Shown here: in pieces, positions 28,309 through 57,233 of the stretch
How positions within the stretch are numbered: the stretch's first letter is position 1
How the letters are laid out: each line of letters starts with the position of its first letter
Origin: Escherichia coli
Lineage (GTDB): Bacteria; Pseudomonadota; Gammaproteobacteria; Enterobacterales; Enterobacteriaceae
DNA length: 64,000 nucleotides
Reading direction: 5' to 3' (one strand)
NCBI RefSeq assembly: GCF_013315695.1
Contig: NZ_CP054353.1
The notes under the pieces: model-generated
Database searches by the model: none
Told to the model about the DNA's origin: nothing
The model's input: the letters and a program-made list of their open reading frames with translations, nothing else
Position numbers and translations under genes: made by a program

Positions 28309-29181
28309 TTACCAGCGACCGGACGCGCCGCCACCGCCAGAAGAACCGCCCCCGCCGCTAAATCCGCCGCCACTTGAGCCGCCACCGGAACCGCTGTTGT
28401 CTGAATGATAACTTCTACCAGATGCTTTTTTCTGAAGTACACATAAACAGGTAAAGACCATAATGGTGGTGAAAGTAAAAAAGAAGAAAAATACAGCAAT
28501 GGAAAAAGTTTTATCGGAGAACAGGAATAAATCTAAAAGATAGATTGCTGAAATACAGACACTGCTTTTACATGCGCGACAAAAATTACTGCCTTGATGA
28601 AAAAACCAGAAAGGGAAGAACATCACTGCAAATACCCAAAAAATAGCAAAGTAATAATGATCACTGGAAGACGCTGATTCAATTTCTGAAGGATTAGCCG
28701 GATATTGGTGTTGTGAAGTGAGTTGGTTATTCAAAGCGTTTATAGCTAGCTCTAATCCCTGAGCTAATTTTTGTTGTTTAAATGCGGGTATCATGTTGCT
28801 ACGGATGATATCTCCAGCCAGAGCATCGGTTACCTTTTCTTCCAGCCCATAACCTACCTGGATGCGGACAGTGCGATCCGACCAGGCAACAATGATCAGT
28901 ATCCCATCATTGCGTTTGGCATCTCCTAAACGCCAATTGTTAAAAACCCTTGTAGCATATTGTTCAATTGTCTCGTCTTTGGTTGTGGGAATAATTAATA
29001 CAGCAATTTGTACTTGGGTATTATTGAAAATAGATTCTAACTTCCGCGTCAGTTCTTTCTTTTCTTGTGAGTTTAAGCTACTCGTAAGATCCGTAACTTG
29101 TTGCTGTAATTGTGGGACAATAGTTGGTTGGGCTGCAACAAAGGAACACACGAATGTGAATATTAGTATGAAATAGCGCAT
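28309..29181 (-). CDS. ygcG: TPM-domain (YgcG-family) membrane protein with Gly/Ser-rich C-terminal tail
   Basis: 290 aa from [19 protein letters not shown] (signal peptide); TM segment; C-terminal [23 protein letters not shown] tail. Confidence 0.8.
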
Positions 29182-29474
29182 TATAAATGTCCCATTAAAG
29201 CTGGATAAATAAATTGACGGCGGCATCGGTAATTTGAGATTCGTTATAATTAAAAACGAACACAGAAAAAATAAGTATAATTTCGGTGAATGTTTTTGAC
29301 ATGATTAAATCCCTTTACTTTATTTATTTCTGACATAATACGTTACTTCCTTTTATTATTAACGATCTGTTTCTCATTTTTCTTTAAACCTGCCTGTAAC
29401 AGAATGTTAATAAGACATGATTGTTGTGGCAGGATCTGCAATAATTAACAATTATCCACTTCACAGAGAATGCT

Positions 29475-30146
29475 ATGCAGTACCCGATTAACGAGATGTT
29501 CCAGACCCTGCAAGGTGAGGGTTACTTTACCGGCGTCCCCGCCATTTTTATTCGTTTACAGGGATGTCCGGTCGGCTGTGCCTGGTGCGACACCAAACAC
29601 ACCTGGGAAAAGCTTGAGGATCGGGAAGTCTCCCTTTTCAGCATTCTGGCGAAGACCAAAGAGAGTGATAAGTGGGGGGCGGCGAGCAGTGAAGATTTGC
29701 TGGCTGTCATTGGTCGTCAGGGATACACCGCGCGGCATGTGGTGATTACGGGTGGTGAGCCTTGCATTCATGATTTGCTGCCACTGACTGACCTGCTCGA
29801 AAAGAACGGTTTTAGCTGCCAGATAGAAACCAGCGGCACTCACGAAGTACGTTGCACACCGAATACCTGGGTTACTGTTTCGCCAAAACTGAACATGCGC
29901 GGCGGCTATGAAGTGTTGTCACAGGCACTGGAGCGCGCTAACGAAATTAAACATCCTGTTGGGCGTGTTCGTGACATCGAAGCGCTGGATGAGCTATTAG
30001 CAACGCTGACCGATGATAAACCACGAGTCATTGCACTGCAGCCGATTAGCCAAAAGGATGATGCCACTCGTTTGTGCATTGAAACCTGCATTGCGCGTAA
30101 CTGGCGTTTGTCGATGCAAACACATAAATATCTAAATATTGCCTGA
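29475..30146 (+). CDS. queE: 7-carboxy-7-deazaguanine synthase (radical SAM, queuosine biosynthesis)
   Basis: 223 aa; radical-SAM Cys motif CPVGCAWCDT; matches remembered YgcF/QueE. Confidence 0.95.
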   Translation: MQYPINEMFQTLQGEGYFTGVPAIFIRLQGCPVGCAWCDTKHTWEKLEDREVSLFSILAKTKESDKWGAASSEDLLAVIGRQGYTARHVVITGGEPCIHDLLPLTDLLEKNGFSCQIETSGTHEVRCTPNTWVTVSPKLNMRGGYEVLSQALERANEIKHPVGRVRDIEALDELLATLTDDKPRVIALQPISQKDDATRLCIETCIARNWRLSMQTHKYLNIA

Positions 30147-30485
30147 TTAAACATTTATAAGCGTTATAAATGGGTGGAACCTGTAAAGACTTCTACTCAT
30201 TTATATTGTTTGTCGCCTCTGAAAACTCATCCATCTTGCCCATCCTGAACTAATCATTATCATTCTCTACAAATTCTGTGGCGTTAATTTTTCGCTGGAG
30301 TGAAAATTATTGCGGTAAAGTTTGGTAGATTTTAGTTTGTATAGAGTTATTTTAAATATTTACCTTTTTAATCAATGGATTAAGTGCTCTTTAACATAAT
30401 GGATGTGTTGTTTGTGTGATACTGTAAAGTTGGTAGATTGTGACTGGCTTAAAAAATCATTAATTAATAATAGGTTATGTTTAGA
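30147..30485 (+). promoter_or_regulatory. CRISPR leader (A/T-rich) of distal array
   Basis: A/T-rich 340 bp ending in motif agttggtagattgt shared with the cas-adjacent leader; immediately precedes first repeat. Confidence 0.6.
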
Positions 30486-31425: not shown

Positions 31426-31760
31426 ATCGATACAAAAAATCAAATTTAATCAAAGTGTTATTTGTATAATCCTTAAACCGTTAAGAAATTTTAATATATT
31501 ATTTTTTTAATATTAATTAATGCCTGTTAATTTTTTCTTTAGAATAACAGTGTATTTTTTAAGCTTGTTATTCATTGATTAAGTAATAAATCTGGAAGTT
31601 TGTCTTTGTTTTGAGGCTAATGAGTGGTTTTACATAACCGCCTCTATACGCTGTTGATGAATAGTTCTTATGAATAAAGATATCCAGTTCATACTTTAAG
31701 TGAAAATTGATAAAGTGCGATTCGTATTGTCTTTTATTCTAAAGACATCGAGTGTAGTTA

Positions 31761-47005: not shown

Positions 47006-47740
47006 ATGTCCAAACTCGATCTAAACGCCCTGAACGAACTGCCAAAGGTAGACCGGATTCTGGCGCTGGCGGAAACTAACGCCCAACTGGAAAAACTGGA
47101 CGCTGAAGGCCGCGTAGCCTGGGCGCTGGATAATCTGCCCGGTGAATATGTACTTTCTTCCAGCTTTGGCATTCAGGCGGCGGTGAGCCTGCATCTGGTG
47201 AATCAGATTCACCCGGATATTCCAGTGATCCTCACCGATACCGGTTATCTGTTCCCGGAAACCTACCGCTTTATTGACGAGTTAACGGACAAACTCAAAC
47301 TCAACCTGAAAGTGTACCGTGCTACCGAAAGCGCTGCCTGGCAGGAAGCGCGCTACGGCAAACTGTGGGAACAGGGCGTTGAAGGTATTGAAAAGTACAA
47401 CGATATCAACAAAGTCGAACCGATGAACCGGGCGCTAAAAGAACTGAACGCGCAAACCTGGTTTGCCGGCCTGCGCCGTGAACAATCCGGCAGTCGTGCC
47501 AATTTACCGGTGCTGGCAATTCAGCGTGGCGTATTTAAAGTGCTGCCGATTATCGACTGGGATAACCGAACTATTTATCAGTACCTGCAAAAACATGGCC
47601 TGAAATATCACCCATTATGGGATGAAGGATATTTATCGGTCGGTGATACCCATACAACCCGTAAATGGGAACCCGGCATGGCGGAAGAAGAAACGCGTTT
47701 CTTTGGCTTAAAAAGAGAATGTGGGTTACACGAAGGGTAA
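47006..47740 (+). CDS. cysH: Phosphoadenosine phosphosulfate (PAPS) reductase
   Basis: 244 aa from [11 protein letters not shown]; C-terminal ECGLH motif; ORF-track call has 51-codon upstream extension. Confidence 0.9.
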
Positions 47741-47757
47741 ATATTGCCGGATAAATT

Positions 47758-47796
47758 AAACGCCTCTGTCAGAAATGATGGGGGCGTTTTTATTTT
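47758..47796 (+). terminator. Putative cysH terminator
   Basis: aaacgcc...ggcgttt stem followed by TTATTTT; long loop, modest confidence. Confidence 0.4.
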
Positions 47797-47906
47797 GCGA
47801 GCAGCATTCCTGATTTTAAACGTGAACGTCGTTGGAAGAATTAACAGGTATAGAATGGCGTTGGGTGCTTGAGGCTGTCTGGCGTTAAGCATTCGCGAGG
47901 TTCCAG

Positions 47907-48008
47907 ATGGACAAAAGCCCCAGGCGATATTTCTATCAACCTGAGGCCAGCGTTCGAACCCAAACAATTCGAATGTTAGTCTCTTCTTTGCAGGGAGGCA
48001 AGACATGC
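47907..48008 (+). CDS. mok-like leader ORF translationally coupled to hok-like toxin
   Basis: 33-codon ORF ([34 protein letters not shown]) whose stop overlaps the toxin start (ATGcTGA). Confidence 0.4.
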
Positions 48009-48157
48009 TGACAAAATATGCCCTTGTGGCAATCATAGTGCTGTGTTTTACAGTACTGGGATTCACGCTGATGGTAGGCGACTCGTTGTGTGAGTTGAGT
48101 ATCAGAGAACGTGGTATGGAGTTTAAGGCGGTTCTCGCTTACGAATCGAAGAAGTAG
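48005..48157 (+). CDS. Hok/Gef-family type I toxin (50 aa)
   Basis: [50 protein letters not shown]; single TM helix then conserved SLCE...AYES periplasmic motif; RBS agggagg 7 nt upstream; below 60-aa cutoff of ORF track. Confidence 0.8.
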
Positions 48158-48160
48158 CCA

Positions 48161-48225
48161 CCACGCGGGGGTAAAACCCCGCGTACTGAATTGTGATGGT
48201 TTGGTCTCCTGCACCCTTTTTTAAT
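48161..48225 (+). terminator. 3' structured region of the hok-like transcript
   Basis: GC hairpin acgcgggg-gtaaaa-ccccgcgt, then ggtctcctgcaccc + T6; 3' GCACCC could pair with upstream GGGUGC (47873-47878). Confidence 0.4.
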
Positions 48226-48351
48226 TTATATTGTTTATGTGAATATTATGCCTATGTTTATTATTCATATATATTACGGATGAAAATTATTTGATTATTC
48301 ATAATGTAAATATTTTATTGAACGATATATATCACAGATAATTTTTAATAT
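48226..48351 (+). promoter_or_regulatory. A/T-rich region upstream of cas3 (probable promoter/regulatory region)
   Basis: About 125 bp of >80% A+T immediately upstream of cas3 start; exact promoter not pinned. Confidence 0.4.
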
Positions 48352-51051
48352 ATGCGTAAATATCCTTTAAGTTTACTGAAGGATAAAAATATTGTGACTT
48401 TTTTTGATTTCTGGGGAAAAACCCGACGCGGCGAGAAAGACGGGGGCGACGACTATCACCTTCTTTGCTGGCATTCGCTGGATGTAGCCGCGATGGGCTA
48501 TTTAATGGTTAAAAGCAATTGCTTCGGACTGGCTGACTATTTTCGTCAATTAGGTTTCGCTGACACGGAGCTGGCAGCACAATTTTTCGCCTGGCTGCTG
48601 TGCTGGCACGATATTGGAAAATTTGCCCGCTCTTTTCAGCAACTTTACCTGCACCCACAACTCAAGGTTCCGGAAGGCGCAAGAAAGAATTACGAAAAGA
48701 TCTCTCATTCAACGCTGGGCTACTGGTTGTGGAACCATTATTTAAGTGAATGTCAGGAGTTGCTTCCTTCATCTTCACTCTCTCCGCGCAAACTTAAACG
48801 GGTGATGGAGATGTGGATGCCCATGACTACCGGGCATCATGGTCGACCCCCTGAGCGTATGGATGAACTGGATAATTTTCTGCCTGAAGACAAAGGTGCC
48901 GCACGAGATTTTCTCCTTGCAATCAAGGTACTGTTTCCGCTCATAGAGATCCCCACATTCTGGGATGATGACGAGGGCGTTGAACTTATAAAACAACTTT
49001 CCTGGTATATCTCTGCAACCGTCGTACTTGCAGACTGGACGGGATCGTCAACGCGATATTTTCCACGCGTCGCACAGACAATGGATATTGAAGATTACTG
49101 GCAGAAAACTTTAGTTCAGGCTCAAAACGCCTTAACCGTCTTTCCTCCAAAAGCAGAAAGCGCGCCTTTCACCGGAATTAATACGCTGTTTCCTTTTATT
49201 GAGAATCCGACACCGCTACAGCAAAAGGTGCTGGATCTGGATATCAGCCAGCCGGGACCACAGTTATTTATTCTGGAGGATGTAACCGGCGCAGGTAAAA
49301 CAGAAGCGGCGCTTATCCTGGCGCACAGGTTGATGGCTGCGGGGAAAGCGCAGGGTTTGTTTTTTGGCCTGCCAACAATGGCAACGGCCAATGCCATGTA
49401 CGATCGACTGGTCAAAACCTGGCTTGCTTTCTATTCGCCAGAGTCCCGCCCCAGCCTGGTGCTGGCACACAGTGCCCGAACATTAATGGACCGCTTTAAT
49501 GAATCACTCTGGTCCGGTGATTTAGTCGGGTCAGAAGAACCGGATGAACAAACGTTCAGTCAGGGATGTGCGGCCTGGTTTGCCGACAGTAACAAGAAGG
49601 CGCTACTGGCTGAAATTGGCGTCGGCACGCTGGATCAGGCGATGATGGCTGTGATGCCGTTCAAACATAATAATCTGCGGCTTCTGGGACTGAGTAACAA
49701 AATCCTGCTGGCTGATGAGATCCATGCCTGTGACGCTTACATGTCATGCATTCTTGAAGGGCTGATCGAGCGGCAGGCGCGTGGCGGAAACAGCGTCATT
49801 TTGCTTTCTGCCACGTTATCTCAACAGCAGCGCGACAAACTCGTTGCTGCCTTTGCGCGTGGTATAGAGGGCCAGCAAGAAGCTCCGTTCCTGGAAAAGG
49901 ATGATTACCCCTGGCTGACGCACGTTACGAAATCCGATGTGCATTCACACCGGGTAGCGACGCGCAAAGACGTTGAGCGCAGCGTGAGTGTGGGTTGGCT
50001 TCATAGCGAACAAGAGTGTATTGCGCGTATCGAATCGGCGGTAAGTCAGGGGAAATGTATCGCCTGGATCCGAAATTCTGTCGATGACGCCATCCAGGTT
50101 CATCGTCAGTTACTTGCCCGCGGCGTCATTCCTGCTTCCAGCCTTTCACTTTTTCATAGCCGCTTTGCTTTTAGCGATCGCCAGCGAATTGAAACGGAGA
50201 CGCTGGCACGCTTTGGTAAAGAAGACTGTTCACAGCGTGCCGGAAAAGTCCTCATTTGTACTCAAGTCCTGGAGCAGAGCGTTGACTGCGACCTGGACGA
50301 AATGATTTCCGACCTTGCCCCTGTTGATTTACTGATCCAGCGAGCAGGGCGATTACAGCGACATATCCGCGATATGAATGGCCAGTTAAAGCGTGACGGT
50401 AAAGACGAGCGTCACCCTCCTGAATTGCTGATTCTGGCCCCCGTCTGGGACGACTCTCCGGGTGACGAATGGTTTGGCAGTGCCATGCGTAACAGTGCAT
50501 TTGTCTATCCCGATCATGGGCGAATCTGGCTGACGCAGCGTGTGCTGCGTGAGCAAGGTGCTATTCAGATGCCACACTCAGCCCGGCTTCTGATTGAATC
50601 AGTCTACGGTGAGGACGTAGTAATGCCGGAAGGGTTTGCCCGCAGCGAGCAGGAGCAAGTGGGCAAATATTACTGCGATCGCGCAATGGCTAAAAAGTTT
50701 GTACTGAACTTCAGGCCCGGCTATGCCGCCAATATCAACGATTACCTCCCGGAAAAACTGTCGACACGTCTGGCTGAAGAGTCTGTTTCCCTGTGGCTGG
50801 CTACCTGTATTGACGGTGTGGTGAAGCCTTATGCCACAGGTGCACACGCATGGGAAATGAGCGTTGTCAGAGTGCGCCGAAGCTGGTGGAAAAAACATCG
50901 GGATGAGTTTGCTTTACTGGAAGGGGATGCGTTCAGGCAGTGGTGCGTTGAACAGCGGCATGATCCGGAGATGGCAAACGTGATTTTAGTCACCGATGAC
51001 GAAAGTTGTGGGTATTCGGCTACGGAGGGATTGATTGGCAAGGTTGGTTGA
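48352..51051 (+). CDS. cas3: Cas3 HD-nuclease/helicase (type I signature protein)
   Basis: 899-aa ORF; HD motif LCWHDIGKF; helicase motif I TGAGKTEA, motif II DEIHA; position upstream of cse1; start codon uncertain. Confidence 0.9.
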   Translation: MRKYPLSLLKDKNIVTFFDFWGKTRRGEKDGGDDYHLLCWHSLDVAAMGYLMVKSNCFGLADYFRQLGFADTELAAQFFAWLLCWHDIGKFARSFQQLYLHPQLKVPEGARKNYEKISHSTLGYWLWNHYLSECQELLPSSSLSPRKLKRVMEMWMPMTTGHHGRPPERMDELDNFLPEDKGAARDFLLAIKVLFPLIEIPTFWDDDEGVELIKQLSWYISATVVLADWTGSSTRYFPRVAQTMDIEDYWQKTLVQAQNALTVFPPKAESAPFTGINTLFPFIENPTPLQQKVLDLDISQPGPQLFILEDVTGAGKTEAALILAHRLMAAGKAQGLFFGLPTMATANAMYDRLVKTWLAFYSPESRPSLVLAHSARTLMDRFNESLWSGDLVGSEEPDEQTFSQGCAAWFADSNKKALLAEIGVGTLDQAMMAVMPFKHNNLRLLGLSNKILLADEIHACDAYMSCILEGLIERQARGGNSVILLSATLSQQQRDKLVAAFARGIEGQQEAPFLEKDDYPWLTHVTKSDVHSHRVATRKDVERSVSVGWLHSEQECIARIESAVSQGKCIAWIRNSVDDAIQVHRQLLARGVIPASSLSLFHSRFAFSDRQRIETETLARFGKEDCSQRAGKVLICTQVLEQSVDCDLDEMISDLAPVDLLIQRAGRLQRHIRDMNGQLKRDGKDERHPPELLILAPVWDDSPGDEWFGSAMRNSAFVYPDHGRIWLTQRVLREQGAIQMPHSARLLIESVYGEDVVMPEGFARSEQEQVGKYYCDRAMAKKFVLNFRPGYAANINDYLPEKLSTRLAEESVSLWLATCIDGVVKPYATGAHAWEMSVVRVRRSWWKKHRDEFALLEGDAFRQWCVEQRHDPEMANVILVTDDESCGYSATEGLIGKVG

Positions 51052-51140
51052 GATGTCTGCGACAGGATTCTCTGAATAGTTGATACACAAAAAAGGATGG
51101 ACAACCGACCAGGGATGGTCTTTTTTACGAGAGGATGCGT

Positions 51141-52703
51141 ATGAACTCGTTTTCACTTCTGACAACCCCGTGGTTGCCTGTTCGTTTCAAAGACGGAACG
51201 ACAGGCAAGCTGGCATCAGTCGATCTGGCTGATGAGAATGTTGTCGATATCGCCGCACCGCGAGCAGATTTACAAGGTGCGGCCTGGCAGTTTTTGCTGG
51301 GACTACTACAAACCAGCTTCGCGCCAAAAGATCATCGTCGTTGGGATGATATCTGGGAAGACGGACTGGAAGCTGAAAAGCTACGAGAAGCATTGCTGTC
51401 TTTAGAACATGCTTTCCAGTTTGGGCCTGATTCATCTTCATTTATGCAGGATTTTGAGGCGCTCACGGGAGATAAAGTTCCGGTCGCTTCGCTACTGCCT
51501 GAGATTCCCGGCTCTCAAACGACGAAGTTTAATAAAGACCATTTTATCAAGCGGGGTGTAACGGAATATCTGTGCCCCCATTGCTTAGCATTGGCCTTGT
51601 TCTCTTTACAGTTGAATGCACCCGCGGGCGGCAAAGGCTATCGCACCGGTTTACGCGGCGGTGGGCCGATGACGACTCTCATTGAATTACAGGAATATCA
51701 GGGCAATCAACAAACACCCTTGTGGCGCAAACTGTGGCTCAACGTGATGCCGCAGGATGAAGCCGACTTACCGCTACCCAAAAAATTTGACGATCTGATT
51801 TTCCCCTGGCTAGGCCCGACGCGTACCAGCGAACTGGCCGGTGCGGTGGTAACCCATGATCAGGTCAATAAACTCCAGGCGTACTGGGGAATGCCGCGGC
51901 GTATACGTATTGATTTTAATACCACGACAGTCGGCAACTGCGATATTTGCGACGAGCAGAACGACGCGCTCCTGAGCCTGATGACGACCAAAAATTATGG
52001 TGCCAATTATGCCATGTGGCAGCATCCCTTAACGCCTTACCGTGTACCACTTAAAGAGGGTGGCGAGTTTTACTCCGTTAAACCACAACCGGGCGGTTTA
52101 ATCTGGCGCGACTGGTTAGGCCTTATCGAAACGGGTAAATCAGAAAACAATACGGAACTTCCCGCGCTGGTGGTGAAACTCTTTAATGCCAGCAGTCTGA
52201 AACAGGCAAAAGTGGGCCTATGGGGATTTGGTTATGATTTTGACAACATGAAAGCGCGCTGTTGGTACGAACACCATTTCCCGCTACTGCTCAATAAAAA
52301 AGAAGGCCAGATACCGAAGCTGCGGCTGGCTGCGCAAACGGCTTCACGGATTCTGAGTCTGTTACGGAGTGCATTGAAAGAAGCATGGTTCTCCGATCCA
52401 AAAGGTGCAAGGGGTGATTTCAGTTTTGTGGATATCGACTTCTGGAACAAAACTCAGCATCGCTTCCTGAGGTTAGTGCGCCAAATTGAAGAAGGTCAGG
52501 ATGCGGATGAATTACTCGGCAAATGGCAAAAGGAAATTTGGTTATTCGCGCGTCAGGATTTTGACGAGCGTGTATTCACTAATCCTTATGAGCCCGTTGA
52601 TTTGAAACGCGTCATGACCGCGCGCAAGAAATATTTTACAACATCGGCGGAGAAGCAAAGTGCTAAAGCCGCCAGGGAGAAAAAGCAGGAGGCTGCTGAA
52701 TGA
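51141..52703 (+). CDS. casA: Cascade large subunit Cse1 (CasA)
   Basis: About 520 aa; first gene of Cascade operon after cas3; RBS gagagga before ATG 51141 (alternative ATG 51135). Confidence 0.85.
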   Translation: MNSFSLLTTPWLPVRFKDGTTGKLASVDLADENVVDIAAPRADLQGAAWQFLLGLLQTSFAPKDHRRWDDIWEDGLEAEKLREALLSLEHAFQFGPDSSSFMQDFEALTGDKVPVASLLPEIPGSQTTKFNKDHFIKRGVTEYLCPHCLALALFSLQLNAPAGGKGYRTGLRGGGPMTTLIELQEYQGNQQTPLWRKLWLNVMPQDEADLPLPKKFDDLIFPWLGPTRTSELAGAVVTHDQVNKLQAYWGMPRRIRIDFNTTTVGNCDICDEQNDALLSLMTTKNYGANYAMWQHPLTPYRVPLKEGGEFYSVKPQPGGLIWRDWLGLIETGKSENNTELPALVVKLFNASSLKQAKVGLWGFGYDFDNMKARCWYEHHFPLLLNKKEGQIPKLRLAAQTASRILSLLRSALKEAWFSDPKGARGDFSFVDIDFWNKTQHRFLRLVRQIEEGQDADELLGKWQKEIWLFARQDFDERVFTNPYEPVDLKRVMTARKKYFTTSAEKQSAKAAREKKQEAAE

Positions 52704-53236
52704 GTATTGTAAAAGAGGAGCACAAAGCCACGCTGCGTAAATGGCACGAAGAGTTGCAGGAAAAACGCGGCAATCGTGCCAGTCTGCGGCGTAGCACAAC
52801 GGTTAATGATGTTTGTCTGTCAGAAGGTTTTCGTTCTCTGCTGATGCAGACCCACACGTTGTGGAAAATTGAATCACAGGAGTGGCGTTTTACCGCACTG
52901 GCGCTGGTTGCCGCCGTTGCCGCCAATGTAAAAGCCATTGATGAACGGCAGCCTTTTGCCGCGCAGTTGGCGGCGGTAATGTCTGAGGGGCGTTTTACTC
53001 GCCTGTCGGCAGTCAAAACGCCGGATGAATTACTGCGCCAGTTACGTCGCGCGGTCAAATTATTAAATGGTTCCGTCAATCTTATCTCTTTGGCAGACGA
53101 TATTTTCCGCTGGTGCCAGGAGAGTGACGACCTGCTCAATCATCACCGCCGCCAGCAGCGGCCAACAGAATTTATCCGTATCCGCTGGGCGCTGGAATAT
53201 TACCAGGCTGGCGACGCCGATAACGAACAAAATTAA
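52700..53236 (+). CDS. casB: Cascade small subunit Cse2 (CasB)
   Basis: 178 aa; ATGA overlap with casA stop; position between cse1 and cas7e. Confidence 0.8.
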   Translation: MSIVKEEHKATLRKWHEELQEKRGNRASLRRSTTVNDVCLSEGFRSLLMQTHTLWKIESQEWRFTALALVAAVAANVKAIDERQPFAAQLAAVMSEGRFTRLSAVKTPDELLRQLRRAVKLLNGSVNLISLADDIFRWCQESDDLLNHHRRQQRPTEFIRIRWALEYYQAGDADNEQN

Positions 53237-53250
53237 TAAAGGACTATCTC

Positions 53251-54306
53251 ATGACGACATTTATTCAGCTTCATTTGTTAACCGCTTACCCTGCTGCCAA
53301 CCTTAACCGTGATGACACCGGTGCGCCAAAAACTGTGGTACTGGGTGGAGCAACGCGTCTGCGCGTTTCCTCGCAAAGTCTGAAACGTGCGTGGCGCACT
53401 TCTGCACTTTTTGAACAGGCGCTGGCGGGCCATATTGGTATTCGTAGTGGGCGTATCGCGCGCGAGGCAGCAACTATCATGATTGAGAAAGGAATCGAAG
53501 AAAAAAAAGCCATCGAATGGGCGGCAGATATTGCCGATTATCTTGGTAAAGCCAAAAAAGACAAAAAACCAAAAGATCCGCTCACTAACGCTGAAACTGA
53601 ACAGCTCGTCCATATCAGCCCGGCAGAATTTGACGCCGTAAAAGCGCTGGCCCATCAACTGGCAGAAGAAAAGCGCGCGCCAAAAGAGGACGATCTCGCT
53701 TTGTTACGTAAAGATCGTATGGCGGTAGATATCGCCATGTTTGGTCGTATGCTGGCGAATAAACCCGAGTTTAATGTTGAAGCCGCCTGTCAGGTCGCGC
53801 ACGCGTTTGGTGTCAGTGAAACGATTGTCGAAGATGATTTTTTCACCGCCGTTGATGATTTGCGCCAGGCCTCTGAAGATGCTGGTGCAGGGCATCTTGG
53901 TGAAACTGGATTTGGTTCTGCGCTGTTCTACACCTATATCTGCATTGATAAAGATCTGCTGGTCGAAAACCTCGGCGGTGACGAAGCATTAGCTAATCAG
54001 ACCCTGCGCGCCTTTACGGAAGCAGCGTTTAAAGTTTCCCCAACCGGTAAACAAAACAGCTTTGCCAGCCGTGCCTACGCCTCCTGGGCGCTGGCAGAAA
54101 AAGGCACCGAACAACCGCGTTCTCTGGCGGCGGCTTTCTATGAACCCATTAATGGCACACGTCAGTTAGATGTGGCGGTGCAGCGTATTACAACGCTTCG
54201 CGAAAACATGAATACGGTTTACGAACAGAAGACCGAATGCGCAAGTTTTGACGTGATGAACAAACAGGGAAGCATGAAGGACGTGCTGGACTTTATCTGC
54301 GCGTAA
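53251..54306 (+). CDS. casC: Cascade backbone subunit Cas7e (CasC)
   Basis: 351 aa; N-terminus MTTFIQLHLLTAYPAANLNRDDTGAPK typical of Cas7e. Confidence 0.9.
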   Translation: MTTFIQLHLLTAYPAANLNRDDTGAPKTVVLGGATRLRVSSQSLKRAWRTSALFEQALAGHIGIRSGRIAREAATIMIEKGIEEKKAIEWAADIADYLGKAKKDKKPKDPLTNAETEQLVHISPAEFDAVKALAHQLAEEKRAPKEDDLALLRKDRMAVDIAMFGRMLANKPEFNVEAACQVAHAFGVSETIVEDDFFTAVDDLRQASEDAGAGHLGETGFGSALFYTYICIDKDLLVENLGGDEALANQTLRAFTEAAFKVSPTGKQNSFASRAYASWALAEKGTEQPRSLAAAFYEPINGTRQLDVAVQRITTLRENMNTVYEQKTECASFDVMNKQGSMKDVLDFICA

Positions 54307-54316
54307 GGGGCGGCTT

Positions 54317-55063
54317 ATGAGCCAATATCTGATTTTTCAGCTTCATGGGCCAATGGCATCCTGGGGCGTTGATGCACCCGGTGAGGTGCGTCATACCCAT
54401 GAACTGCCTTCGCGTTCAGCATTGCTGGGGCTGCTGGCTGCCGGGGTAGGGATACGGCGTGATGACACCGAATGCTTAAACGCGTTTAATCGCCACTATT
54501 CACTGGTGGTTTGCGCCAGCCGTAACCCGCGCTGGGCACGGGATTATCACACGGTCCAGATGCCAAAAGAGGTGCGTAAAGCGCGTTATTTCAGCCGTCG
54601 CGAAGAGTTGAGCGACCCTGATCTTCTAAGCGCGATTATCTCCCGGCGCGACTACTACACCGATGCCTGGTGGATGGTGGCCGTGGCAACAACAGCTGAT
54701 GCGCCTTACAGCCTCGAACAGTTGCAGGAAGGTTTACGCCATCCGGCTTTTCCGCTTTATCTGGGGCGAAAAAGCCATCCGCTGGCATTACCCCTTGCGC
54801 CGTTACTGCTTGAAGGTAACGCGTCTGATGCCTTACGTAACGCATACCAACAGTATCAGGATCGTTTCCACGAACTGAAAGTCTCACTCCCGAAACTTCA
54901 GGATGAATGCTGGTGGGAAGGGGAGCACGATGGCCTGGTCTCGAGCAAAATATTACGCCGCCGGGATGTTCCTTTAAATCGTCAGCAGTGGCTGTTTGGG
55001 GAACGCACCGTCAATCAGGGGCCGTGGCTCAGCAAGGAGGAACCATGTACCTCTCAAGAATAA
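54317..55063 (+). CDS. casD: Cascade subunit Cas5e (CasD)
   Basis: 248 aa; N-terminus MSQYLIFQLHGPMASWG...LLGLLAAGVGIRRDD typical of Cas5e. Confidence 0.9.
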   Translation: MSQYLIFQLHGPMASWGVDAPGEVRHTHELPSRSALLGLLAAGVGIRRDDTECLNAFNRHYSLVVCASRNPRWARDYHTVQMPKEVRKARYFSRREELSDPDLLSAIISRRDYYTDAWWMVAVATTADAPYSLEQLQEGLRHPAFPLYLGRKSHPLALPLAPLLLEGNASDALRNAYQQYQDRFHELKVSLPKLQDECWWEGEHDGLVSSKILRRRDVPLNRQQWLFGERTVNQGPWLSKEEPCTSQE

Positions 55064-55691
55064 CCTTACATACCGGTCAGCTTTCGCCTGCGCAGTTGCT
55101 GCATTTGGTGGATCGCGGTGAATATGTGATGCATCAGTGGCTGTGGGATCTTTTTCCTGGCGGCAAAGAAAGGCAATTTCTTTATCGTCGGGAAGAACTC
55201 CAGGGCGCGTTTCGCTTTTTTGTCCTGTCGCAGGAACGCCCGGCGGAAAGTGAAACGTTCACCATCGAATGCCGGTCATTTGCGCCTGAACTGCATACCG
55301 GACAATCCCTTTGTTTCAACCTGCGGGCGAATCCAACAGTCTGTAAAGCGGGTAAGCGCCACGATCTGCTGATGGAGGCGAAACGGCAGGTGAGGGGGCA
55401 GGCGGAAGGAAGAAATGTCTGGTTGCATCAACAACAGGCGGCGCTGGACTGGCTGGCAGCGCAGGGGGAGAGAAGCGGTTTTACACTGCTGGATACCTCG
55501 GTCGATGCCTACCGACAACAGCAACTGCGGCGGGAAAACTCCCGGCAACTGATCCAGTTCAGTAGCGTGGATTATACGGGGATGCTTACGGTCACCGATC
55601 CTGGGTTATTTCTGCAACGTCTGAGCCAGGGGTATGGCAAAAGCCGGGCGTTCGGTTGTGGTCTGATGCTGATCAAACCTGGAGCAGAGGC

Positions 55692-55695
<4 letters not shown>
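55045..55695 (+). CDS. casE: crRNA endoribonuclease Cas6e (CasE)
   Basis: 216 aa from MYLSRITLHTGQ after AGGAGG RBS; C-terminal Gly-rich loop GYGKSRAFGCGLM; overlaps casD 3' end. Confidence 0.85.
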
Positions 55696-56905
<1,210 letters not shown>

Positions 56906-57001
56906 GTTACCCGTTCTTTAAAAATAAGGAAAAGTTTGAATTTAGTTGGTAGATTGTTGTTGTGGAATAAAATTGTTTAAAAACAGATACGTATGCTTAG
57001 T
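56906..57001 (+). promoter_or_regulatory. CRISPR leader of cas-adjacent array
   Basis: A/T-rich 96 bp containing agttggtagattgttg motif shared with distal leader; directly precedes repeat 1. Confidence 0.6.
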
Positions 57002-57212
57002 GTGTTCCCCGCGCCAGCGGGGATAAACCGGCTGGGTACTAGCCAGGGTGAAAGGAAGTCACGTGTTCCCCGCGCCAGCGGGGATAAACCGTCGACAATG
57101 GATAAGTTGACTTCAGGTCTGGGGAGTTCCCCGCGCTAGCGGGAATAAACCGTGCAGTACGCCTGATGACAAACCAGGCATCGGGAGTTCCCCCGCGTCA
57201 GCGGGGAACTCC
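57002..57212 (+). CRISPR. Type I-E CRISPR array adjacent to cas2, 4 repeats / 3 spacers
   Basis: Repeats at 57002, 57063, 57124, 57185 (61-bp period); repeats 3 and 4 degenerate; spacers gctgggtactagccagggtgaaaggaagtcac, tcgacaatggataagttgacttcaggtctggg, tgcagtacgcctgatgacaaaccaggcatcgg. Confidence 0.9.
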
Positions 57213-57233
57213 CAGCTCCCATTTTCAAACCCA

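Follow-up and report, generated by a model that had tools for sequence, protein, structure and literature searches.

Knowledge of how CRISPR-Cas is regulated in Escherichia coli comes almost entirely from K-12, where H-NS silencing, LeuO, CRP and LrhA act on Pcas. K-12 carries the cas-E2 form of the type I-E system. The cas-E1 variant, found in O157:H7 and in most B1, D and E strains, was described by Almendros et al. 2014 in mBio (PMC3903273), and an intact hok/sok is one element of the arrangements reported there without being variant-defining. In Salmonella enterica, the cas-STM locus (Typhimurium/Enteritidis) is co-oriented and contiguous in the order cysH-(sopD)-cas3-cse1...cas2, as is the locus studied here, and its CasA is 73-74% identical to the one encoded by this locus. 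The cas3 gene is counted as an operon member in S. Typhimurium (bioRxiv 2026.02.26.708173). In S. Enteritidis, replacement of cas3 raised all seven genes from cse1 to cas2 by 7-20 fold (PMC7168661), which indicates that transcription entering at cas3 reads through into the downstream genes. Autorepression of casA by a CreR mini-CRISPR was reported for the type I-E system of S. enterica ATCC 51960 (bioRxiv 10.1101/2023.03.10.532045).

The window analysed here, by which the whole 64-kb stretch of DNA is meant, is a 100% match to E. coli MS 21-1, in which hok, cas3 and casA to cas2 are annotated. Its cas locus is the published E1 variant, already described and ordinary. We propose, at a probability of roughly 0.55, that cas3 and casA to cas2 are transcribed mainly as one unit from an AT-rich block upstream of cas3.

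The E1 locus and its distance from K-12

The full type I-E gene set (cas3, cse1/casA, cse2/casB, cas7e, cas5e, cas6e, cas1e and cas2e) is present in the window. The features downstream of cas3 are as follows.

51141..55695, plus strand: Cascade genes (RefSeq annotation; all NCBIfam type I-E models above curated cut-offs)
51141-52703, plus strand: casA (RefSeq, NCBIfam)
52700-53236, plus strand: casB (RefSeq, NCBIfam)
53251-54306, plus strand: cas7 (RefSeq, NCBIfam)
54317-55063, plus strand: cas5 (RefSeq, NCBIfam)
55045-55695, plus strand: cas6e (RefSeq, NCBIfam)
55692..56905, plus strand: adaptation genes cas1 (55692-56615) and cas2 (56612-56905) (RefSeq, NCBIfam, identity to K-12)
56906..57214, plus strand: AT-rich CRISPR leader and very short array (repeats at 57002, 57063 and 57124; degenerate repeat at 57186)

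The NCBIfam scores exceed the cut-offs for casA_cse1 (607 against 70), casB (105 against 28.5), casC (444 against 178), casD (158 against 69), casE (288 against 45), cas1_ECOLI (380 against 216) and cas2e (133 against 33), as well as for the cas3_core (214.8 against 102) and cas3_HD (87.6 against 43) models of Cas3. Two K-12-specific models stay below theirs in the window, PRK09694 (418 < 569) and PRK09693 (105 < 576). The array is of the I-E type, with 29-nt repeats (GTGTTCCCCGCGCCAGCGGGGATAAACCG) spaced by 61-62 nt, spacers of about 32 nt and an AT-rich leader.

Among 5426 complete E. coli genomes, the E1 junction is carried by 2428 and the K-12 junction by 1138. The reverse complement of the cas3E1-R primer (PMC3903273), compared by eye, matches the window at 48434-48453. 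The cas-E1 strains resemble the window in the cysH-iap site, the gene order and the intact hok beside cysH, and over this region O157:H7, O22:H8 and other E1 strains share 93-95% nucleotide identity with the window.

K-12 shares with the window the subtype, the chromosomal site, the gene order and a near-identical repeat. The preliminary description had tentatively taken cas3 and the Cascade subunits for a divergent I-E variant relative to K-12, with a conserved cas1 N-terminus. Pairwise comparison bears this out and extends the conservation to the whole of cas1 and cas2. Amino-acid identity to K-12 is 32% for Cas3, 24.5% for CasA, about 27% for CasB, 32% for Cas7, 37% for Cas5 and 31% for Cas6e, against 84% for Cas1 and 86% for Cas2. 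At 24-37% identity for Cas3 and Cascade, the operon is clearly not identical to that of K-12. The nucleotide identity of cas1 and cas2 to K-12, about 73-75%, is uniform over both whole genes. No homology was found between the window and K-12 in the control regions, neither upstream of cas3 nor in the cas3-casA spacer, and hok is truncated at its ATG in K-12 but intact in the window.

The region upstream of cas3

Between cysH and cas3, a toxin locus is followed by an AT-rich block.

47863..48222, plus strand: hok-family type I toxin mRNA (Rfam sok, fold, NCBIfam, RefSeq Hok/Gef family protein)
48005-48157, plus strand: hok coding sequence, 50 aa
opposite roughly 47907-47965: Sok antisense region
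48222..48393, plus strand: AT-rich control region, probable cas3 promoter (GC 0.18; sigma-70-like sites)
48371, plus strand: probable cas3 transcription start (G), transferred from EDL933 (Cappable-seq)
48394..51051, plus strand: cas3 with probable revised start GTG 48394, 885 aa (start site, ribosome-binding site, relatives)

The toxin ORF, the Sok region and the 5'-3' fold-back closure typical of hok/sok are all present. The Rfam sok family RF01794 matches 47863-48020 at 111 bits (gathering score 59), and in the full-length mRNA fold the 5' GGGUGC pairs with the 3' GCACCC, directly followed by U6 (about 48216-48222; z = -4.05). The Hok-family NCBIfam matches lie below equivalog cut-offs, consistent with a distinct paralogue.

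The stretch 48217-48336, with a GC content of 0.17, is the second lowest of 120 nt in the 64 kb, and the position-weight scan places several sigma-70-like sites of the AT-rich block in the top 0.05-0.3% of background. The block evolves at about the synonymous rate and occurs in cas-E1 as two haplotypes, of which the window carries one. An AT-rich region of about 125 bp had previously been noted upstream of cas3, right after the end of the hok-like transcript, as the only one near the operon. The region and its position directly after the hok mRNA are real (GC 0.17-0.18), but the extent given was too short, since cas3 probably begins at 48394 and the block thus reaches about 48393; moreover, the CRISPR leader (56882-57001) is also AT-rich, with a GC content of 0.28.

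This revision of the cas3 start stems from EDL933, an E1 strain. In sheet 2 of Table S5 of PMC10469882, a Cappable-seq start at 3694696 (-) is listed for every one of the four stationary-phase conditions but for no exponential condition. The cas3 ATG of EDL933 is annotated at 3694715, 19 nt upstream of the mapped start, and the sequence from ATG to start site is identical in the window, where the start falls at 48371 behind a weak -10 (AAATAT) and no -35. RefSeq sets the window cas3 at ATG 48352 (899 aa). Since transcription starts downstream of the annotated ATG, the real cas3 start is probably GTG 48394, which is preceded by an AAGGA ribosome-binding site at 48379-48383. The conserved Cas3 N-terminus begins at this codon in the nine relatives compared, and the equivalent codon is the called gene or ORF start in 11 relatives.

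On these grounds the cas3 promoter would lie in the block of about 170 bp and 18% GC between the hok mRNA end and cas3, with transcription from about 48371 detectable in stationary phase. Judging from its GC content of 0.18, the block is probably under H-NS-type silencing, as is other AT-rich DNA. That hok read-through instead feeds cas3 transcription or interferes with it is very improbable. The two genes are co-oriented, just about 150 nt separate the hok mRNA end from the cas3 transcription start, and that mRNA does not finish in a classical hairpin-plus-U terminator; against this, the 5'-3' closure of the hok mRNA stands directly before the U6, cas3 has a start site of its own, seen in EDL933 in stationary phase only, and the Salmonella, Citrobacter and Klebsiella orthologues have an equal cas3 layout without hok.

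The cas3-casA spacer and its hairpin

The spacer between the cas3 stop (TGA 51049-51051) and the casA start (ATG 51141) holds two conserved elements.

51052..51140, plus strand: cas3-casA spacer, 89 bp, GC 0.45
51107-51120, plus strand: small hairpin GACCA-GGGA-TGGTC, followed by T6 at 51121-51126 (sequence, fold, covariation)
51131-51134, plus strand: casA ribosome-binding site GAGG, 6 nt before ATG 51141, invariant in all Escherichia sequences

A second in-frame ATG, at 51135, directly abuts GAGG and was therefore discarded as casA start. The earlier account of this spacer, a gap of about 89 bp with a weak hairpin and T6 and no obvious promoter block, is accurate: the gap is exactly 89 bp, the stem has 5 bp at about -5 to -7.5 kcal/mol, and both the GC content and the promoter scan speak for the lack of a promoter block. 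The length of 89 bp is a rare allele, present in 7 of the 2428 E. coli genomes with the E1 junction as against 97 bp in the other 2421, most cas-E1 strains thus differing from the window. The GC content of 0.45 is ordinary, 17% of 89-nt windows being equally low, and the whole spacer folds no better than shuffled sequences (z = -0.62).

Over 50700-51140, the position-weight scan found nothing beyond the top ~1.2% of background and no -10/-35 pair above background. The same scan finds several sites in the top 0.02-0.1% in the K-12 cas3-casA intergenic region, which measures 414 bp at 29% GC and abounds in promoter-like sites, whereas the window has 89 bp at 45% GC. A K-12-type Pcas region, long, AT-rich and with sigma-70 promoters between cas3 and casA, is absent from the window.

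These data bear on the possibility that a dedicated promoter drives Cascade, one that is weak or needs an activator (e.g. LeuO-dependent and H-NS-silenced) and sits either within the 3' coding part of cas3 or inside the spacer; cas3 and casA to cas2 would then form separate units as in K-12. We consider this less likely than a single unit, though a serious contender. Within Escherichia, the diversity of the spacer is 0.046, below that of the synonymous sites (0.129 at cas3 third codon positions), and falls to 0.027 in the 3' module 51095-51140; in addition, most strains retain a near-consensus TTGATA at 51080-51085. That hexamer has no -10 at usable distance, however, and the 8-bp indel shifts the spacing downstream of it. 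Since this indel is tolerated, no promoter needing a fixed spacing can lie across it. Independent control does have precedent in the separate regulation of cas3 and Cascade in K-12, with a promoter for each of cas3 and casA (PMC7019758), and in S. Typhi, with five transcription units (PMC8039139). The K-12 intergenic region is not homologous to this one, though, and S. Typhi is not comparable, as its cas-STY cas3 is inverted with a 357-nt gap (PMC7712790) while cas-STM and E1 are contiguous.

The hairpin is conserved across genera: of the 12 sequences compared, 11 have it 16-20 nt ahead of casA, and in Chimaeribacter the distance is 52 nt. Its outer pairs covary (0.413 against 0.136 in shuffles, with 0 of 500 shuffles reaching 0.413; slid controls ≤0.145), so the hairpin is probably not mainly a terminator. 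Consensus scanning nevertheless marks 51107-51126 as terminator-like, and the stem is followed by T6 in E. coli and E. albertii and by T5 in Intestinirhabdus, as would be expected if most cas3 transcripts stopped here at an intrinsic terminator or attenuator, with Cascade left largely unexpressed or leaky. Such a role appears unlikely. The stem has just 4-5 bp at about -5 kcal/mol, an A/T polymorphism disrupts its top pair in 4 of 7 strains, and it is probably too weak to terminate efficiently; the cysH terminator reaches -19.6 kcal/mol. The region shows no enrichment of terminator-like sites (6 observed, 4.8 expected). The T tract is absent after the orthologous, covarying hairpin of Klebsiella, C. 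rodentium, Cronobacter, Atlantibacter and Pectobacterium, which have a separate strong terminator behind cas3, hundreds of bases upstream, and the position of the hairpin is fixed relative to casA, not to cas3.

Related loci and the number of control regions

The cas3-casA junctions of related loci are of two kinds. Short ones, of 11-28 bp, occur in Salmonella cas-STM, C. freundii, C. youngae, Phytobacter, E. kobei and Scandinavium; that of cas-STM measures 11 bp and lacks the hairpin, and sopD, not hok, lies upstream of cas3. In other relatives the cas3-casA region spans 430-860 bp and accommodates a terminator as well as a CreR-type mini-CRISPR and a small ORF. A CreR-like unit of degenerate repeat, spacer and repeat was found in this region in Klebsiella, Raoultella, C. 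rodentium, Cronobacter, Atlantibacter and Chimaeribacter, each with a PAM-flanked, seed-anchored partial target nearby. Seven relatives in all show these CreR-type characters, K. aerogenes after a 1-nt register correction by eye. The terminator, the mini-array and the target all lie in the part that E. coli lacks, and E. coli E1 retains just the final ~50 nt of the long region, i.e. the hairpin and the ribosome-binding site. Within 47701-57000 of the window, neither repeat-like sequences (≤11 mismatches of 29) nor seed-anchored self-target matches of the array spacers were found.

The 89-bp spacer would accordingly be a short remnant of the longer intergenic region kept by relatives, and not a K-12-style control region. 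The terminator behind cas3, the CreR mini-CRISPR and the stretch where those relatives have their casA promoter appear to be gone from it, and what remains is the conserved hairpin in the 5'-UTR together with the ribosome-binding site of casA. The suggestion that the operon is driven mainly from upstream of cas3 thus gains from the EDL933 start in the AT-rich block, the promoter-poor spacer and the short junctions of relatives; the exclusivity of that region is less secure, since a casA promoter inside the 3' end of cas3 retains some likelihood.

Cascade is required in molar excess over Cas3. This is awkward for a single mRNA in which casA lies behind cas3, past a hairpin and T6. Under transcription as one unit, the retained hairpin could be a processing or stability site, through which the Cascade mRNA would persist longer, or be expressed more strongly, than the cas3 portion of the polycistron.

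A wider reading is offered tentatively, as one that may well prove wrong. The E1 spacer could be the deletion remnant of an ancestral region of about 450 bp that held the cas3 terminator, the CreR mini-CRISPR, the casA-promoter target and a 32-aa ORF; with its loss, Cascade would have ceased to be autoregulated and come under the control of the stationary-phase promoter of cas3, and the retained hairpin would be a functional RNA element. If so, the H-NS/LeuO/Pcas picture of K-12 would be inapplicable to the majority E. coli variant. If E1 uses one stationary-phase promoter, with no Pcas and no CreR, predictions of immunity timing made from K-12 should not transfer to natural E. coli, and the same caution would hold for designs built on the endogenous system of pathogenic strains. 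A small practical by-product concerns annotation: in E1 strains, RefSeq probably begins cas3 14 codons too early.

Control of the cas operon

As proposed in the preliminary description, the evidence best supports a single control region upstream of cas3 (probability of about 0.55), although short of proof. It is favored because of a start site mapped in the AT-rich block preceding cas3, a promoter-poor spacer between cas3 and casA and a comparative series of junctions. The MS 21-1 chromosome matches the window at 100%. The RefSeq features are as follows.

cysH, + strand, 5' of the Hok/Gef gene
48005-48157, + strand, Hok/Gef gene
48352-51051, + strand, cas3 as annotated (ATG 48352, 899 aa)
51141-52703, + strand, casA (cse1)
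3' of casA, + strand, casB, cas7e, cas5e, cas6e, cas1e and cas2e, in that order
after cas2e, CRISPR array of four repeats, then iap on the opposite strand

The AT-rich block begins at the end of the 360-nt hok mRNA, whose 5' end pairs with GCACCC directly before U6 at 48217-48222 (fold z = -4.05); the Rfam sok family matches 47863-48020 (111 bits). At 48217-48336, GC is 0.17, the second lowest among 120-nt stretches of the 64 kb. The lowest is 31430-31549 (GC 0.16), and more low-GC stretches lie at 28426-30470. The region upstream of cas3 had been described as the sole extended A/T-rich one near the operon. The block does follow the hok transcript end, but it is not the only one, since the CRISPR leader of the same locus is AT-rich too (GC 0.28). 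Within Escherichia, the diversity of the block is 0.142. Among strains carrying E1, the non-K-12 type I-E variant of E. coli, 48226-48345 occurs as two haplotypes, set apart by an indel of 3 bp and by substitutions in clusters: one in MS 21-1, 19KM1803 and RIVM, the other in O157, O22:H8, KFu024 and NIST0056.

In a literature search for cas regulation in EHEC or other E1 strains, every study found used K-12, and the sole experimental transcription data set found in the literature for E1 strains is the Cappable-seq of EDL933 (O157:H7, E1) (PMC10469882). Its complete sheet of starts just downstream of annotated start codons includes a cas3 start site at 3694696 on the - strand, detected under each of the four stationary-phase conditions and never in exponential phase (PMC10469882). 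The annotated EDL933 ATG is at 3694715, and the sequence from ATG to start site is identical to that of the window; the start therefore maps to G 48371, 19 nt inside the annotated cas3 ORF. An in-frame GTG at 48394 lies 3' of AAGGA, and the position of this codon is exactly where, in all nine relatives compared, the conserved N-terminal stretch of Cas3 (V/L/M-x-x-F/Y-x-Y/F-W-G-K) starts. Gene or ORF calls begin at the equivalent codon in 11 relatives, including Salmonella, C. freundii, K. aerogenes, Raoultella, C. rodentium and E. kobei. Because of the start site inside the ORF, the AAGGA motif, the conserved N-terminus and these calls, GTG 48394 is probably the true cas3 start, the RefSeq ATG 48352 lying 14 codons too far upstream, and the control region probably spans about 48222-48393. 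By consensus the promoter at 48371 is weak (-10 AAATAT, -35 absent), which fits a start seen in stationary phase only. The interference between hok and cas3 transcription suggested at first has their proximity as its one argument.

With the last base of the cas3 stop at 51051 and the casA ATG at 51141, six bases 3' of GAGG, the 89-bp distance first reported is correct. The spacer (51052-51140) contains the weak hairpin already noticed, GACCA-GGGA-TGGTC followed by T6, of about -5 to -7.5 kcal/mol versus -19.6 for the cysH terminator. The whole spacer does not fold better than shuffles (z = -0.62) and matches no Rfam family. Its GC of 0.45 is ordinary for this window, and the reported lack of an A/T-rich promoter block was borne out by promoter prediction. 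A sigma-70 weight-matrix scan placed no site of 50700-51140 higher than the top ~1.2% of background, against several at 0.02-0.3% both in the cas3-upstream block and in the 414-bp K-12 cas3-casA region. A stricter consensus scan returned zero sites both in the cas3-upstream block and in 50700-51140. A weak or activator-dependent promoter of casA within the cas3 3' end is a less likely alternative. The usual E. coli E1 spacer measures 97 bp, with an extra copy of the 8-bp near-tandem GATGGAAn that MS 21-1 lacks at 51094-51095. Since this indel varies, a promoter needing fixed spacing across 51094-51095 is unlikely. The 89-bp form is a rare allele (MS 21-1 and six others, i.e. 7 of the 2428 E. 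coli genomes with an E1 junction) and also occurs in E. albertii and Escherichia sp. MOD1-EC7003.

Junctions between cas3 and casA among relatives

The cas3-to-casA junctions of relatives whose CasA is 48-76% identical sort into three classes.

Classes of cas3-casA junctions
Tight, 11-28 bp: Salmonella cas-STM, C. freundii, C. youngae, Phytobacter, E. kobei, Scandinavium
Medium, 89-176 bp: Escherichia, K. indica, Intestinirhabdus
Long, 430-860 bp: K. spallanzanii, K. aerogenes, Raoultella, C. rodentium, Cronobacter, Atlantibacter, Chimaeribacter, Pectobacterium

Tight junctions are too short for an intergenic promoter. In S. Typhimurium, cas3 is counted as an operon member. Replacement of cas3 in S. 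Enteritidis raised expression from cse1 to cas2 by 7-20 fold (PMC7168661). Independent units were found in S. Typhi cas-STY, where cas3 is inverted with a 357-nt gap (PMC7712790); this layout is unlike E1 and cas-STM, and S. Typhi was dropped as a precedent for an internal casA promoter.

In long-spacer relatives a small hairpin stands 16-20 nt upstream of casA. With 12 aligned sequences and a stem specified by hand, 78.6% of its cells pair versus 62.5% in shuffles (0/500 reach the observed value), and its covariation score is 0.413 versus 0.136 (0/500; slid controls at most 0.145). These figures come from a small sample of 18-19-nt windows picked by eye, in which the inner CCA-nGGA-TGG is sequence-conserved. 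One pair is GC, AU, CG, GU or UA among the 12 sequences and is never unpaired. Within Escherichia, the diversity of the spacer 3' module (51095-51140) is 0.027 versus 0.129 for third codon positions of cas3. The T tract is confined to Escherichia, Raoultella and Intestinirhabdus, and the hairpin keeps a constant position relative to casA. A role as an element of the casA 5' UTR is more likely for it than one as terminator of cas3.

Mini-CRISPRs and a small ORF in long spacers

Most long spacers have a hairpin after the cas3 stop, strong in the first three inspected. On the minus strand a degenerate repeat is followed by a 19-33-nt spacer and then by a repeat that is better preserved. The loci are from Klebsiella, Raoultella, C. 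rodentium, Cronobacter, Atlantibacter and Chimaeribacter.

cas3-casA regions of comparison loci (own coordinates) with mini-CRISPR and terminator on the minus strand, and examples of a ~32-aa ORF
L014:2165-2664; ORF L014:2512-2610
L051:4017-4500; ORF L051:4348-4446
L052:4039-4500; ORF L052:4351-4449
L053:4006-4500; ORF L053:4349-4447
L055:4072-4500
L017:4495-4994
L018:4136-4997

By scan, the mini-array spacer matches a second site in its own intergenic region at six of seven Enterobacteriaceae loci; in the remaining one, K. aerogenes, a match shows up only with a 1-nt register shift done by eye. Matches are partial and anchored at the seed, run 12-18 nt from position 1 and are always mismatched at position 6. 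The target lies ~100 nt from the spacer (~235 nt in Chimaeribacter) and has a PAM beside it, ATG or AAG in general and ATC in Cronobacter. An autoregulatory mini-CRISPR of the CreR type (Cas-regulating RNA) was demonstrated in one S. enterica I-E locus (bioRxiv 10.1101/2023.03.10.532045). The mini-arrays carry the CreR signature and, judged by sequence, look like further members of that class.

Between the mini-CRISPR target and casA lies a conserved ~32-aa ORF with its own ribosome-binding site (for example MEEKSNRCKRLFCRLMIRLGNKLSVSFQLSVR), which stops about 25 nt before the small hairpin. Substitutions between two Klebsiella species are mostly synonymous, and Pfam gave zero matches to the ORF, whose product could be a CreT-like toxin or act as a leader peptide. 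Homology of the E. coli spacer 5' half to the 3' end of this ORF in relatives was considered and dropped, the similarity being too weak. Neither a repeat-like sequence nor a self-target was found at 47701-57000 of the window. Of the long region, the E. coli spacer retains only the last ~50 nt, with hairpin and ribosome-binding site. K. indica, where the 3'-terminal two-thirds of this ORF persist, is an independent intermediate.

Divergence from K-12 and variation of the locus

Each of the eight Cas proteins scores above its curated NCBIfam cut-off for type I-E, and neither of the K-12-specific models for Cas3 and CasA is reached. Alignment showed that the operon is not identical to that of K-12 (E2) and confirmed the suspected divergence of cas3 and Cascade: pairwise protein identities are 32% (Cas3), 24.5% (CasA), about 27% (CasB), 32% (Cas7), 37% (Cas5) and 31% (Cas6e). 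The conserved genes reach 84% (Cas1), 86% (Cas2), 99% (CysH) and 99% (Iap). Conservation of cas1, first attributed to its N-terminus, is real but not limited to it: from cas1 through cas2 to the leader, identity at the nucleotide level stays flat at 63-80%, mostly 72-78% (100-nt windows), which rules out a recent recombination breakpoint inside cas1. The adaptation genes are under greater constraint.

The E1/E2 dichotomy is already published (Almendros et al. 2014, PMC3903273), and the locus is the E1 variant described there; the sequence of the E1-specific cas3 primer of that study was read by eye at 48434-48453. K-12 homology past cysH ends at ~48007 (48007-48008), exactly at the hok start codon, and K-12 has the sok/hok leader without the toxin ORF. 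This codon is the left limit of the E1/E2 segment replaced in K-12. Comparison of the E1 control regions with K-12 intergenic regions gave zero homology. Among 5426 complete E. coli genomes, 2428 carry the E1 junction and 1138 the K-12 junction.

The array at 57002-57214 is very short, with two perfect repeats, one with three mismatches and one degenerate terminal repeat, and thus holds two or three spacers. In NIST0056 (L008) cas3 is frameshifted, and several E1 strains (database matches H4, H5, H12) have IS421 inserted in it; should the operon form one unit, such insertions could be polar on Cascade. At 50200-50299 in cas3, between-strain diversity is 0.193 versus about 0.05 in adjacent 100-nt bins; a patch of recombination may account for this, or the way in which the frameshifted allele aligns.

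CasA and Cas3 of this E. coli variant are nearer to archaeal proteins from Methanosarcina, Methanolobus and Methanoperedenaceae contigs (37-38% identity) than to those of K-12 (24.5% and 32%). In these loci (L032-L044, from Methanosarcinales and other archaeal contigs) cas3 and casA follow each other in the same order, and their junctions measure 2-22 bp. A 7-kb contig binned under a Collinsella sp. MAG (L011, JAIJJM010000114.1) encodes cas3 and casA with 96-97% identity to those of E. coli and probably comes from Escherichia through mis-binning.
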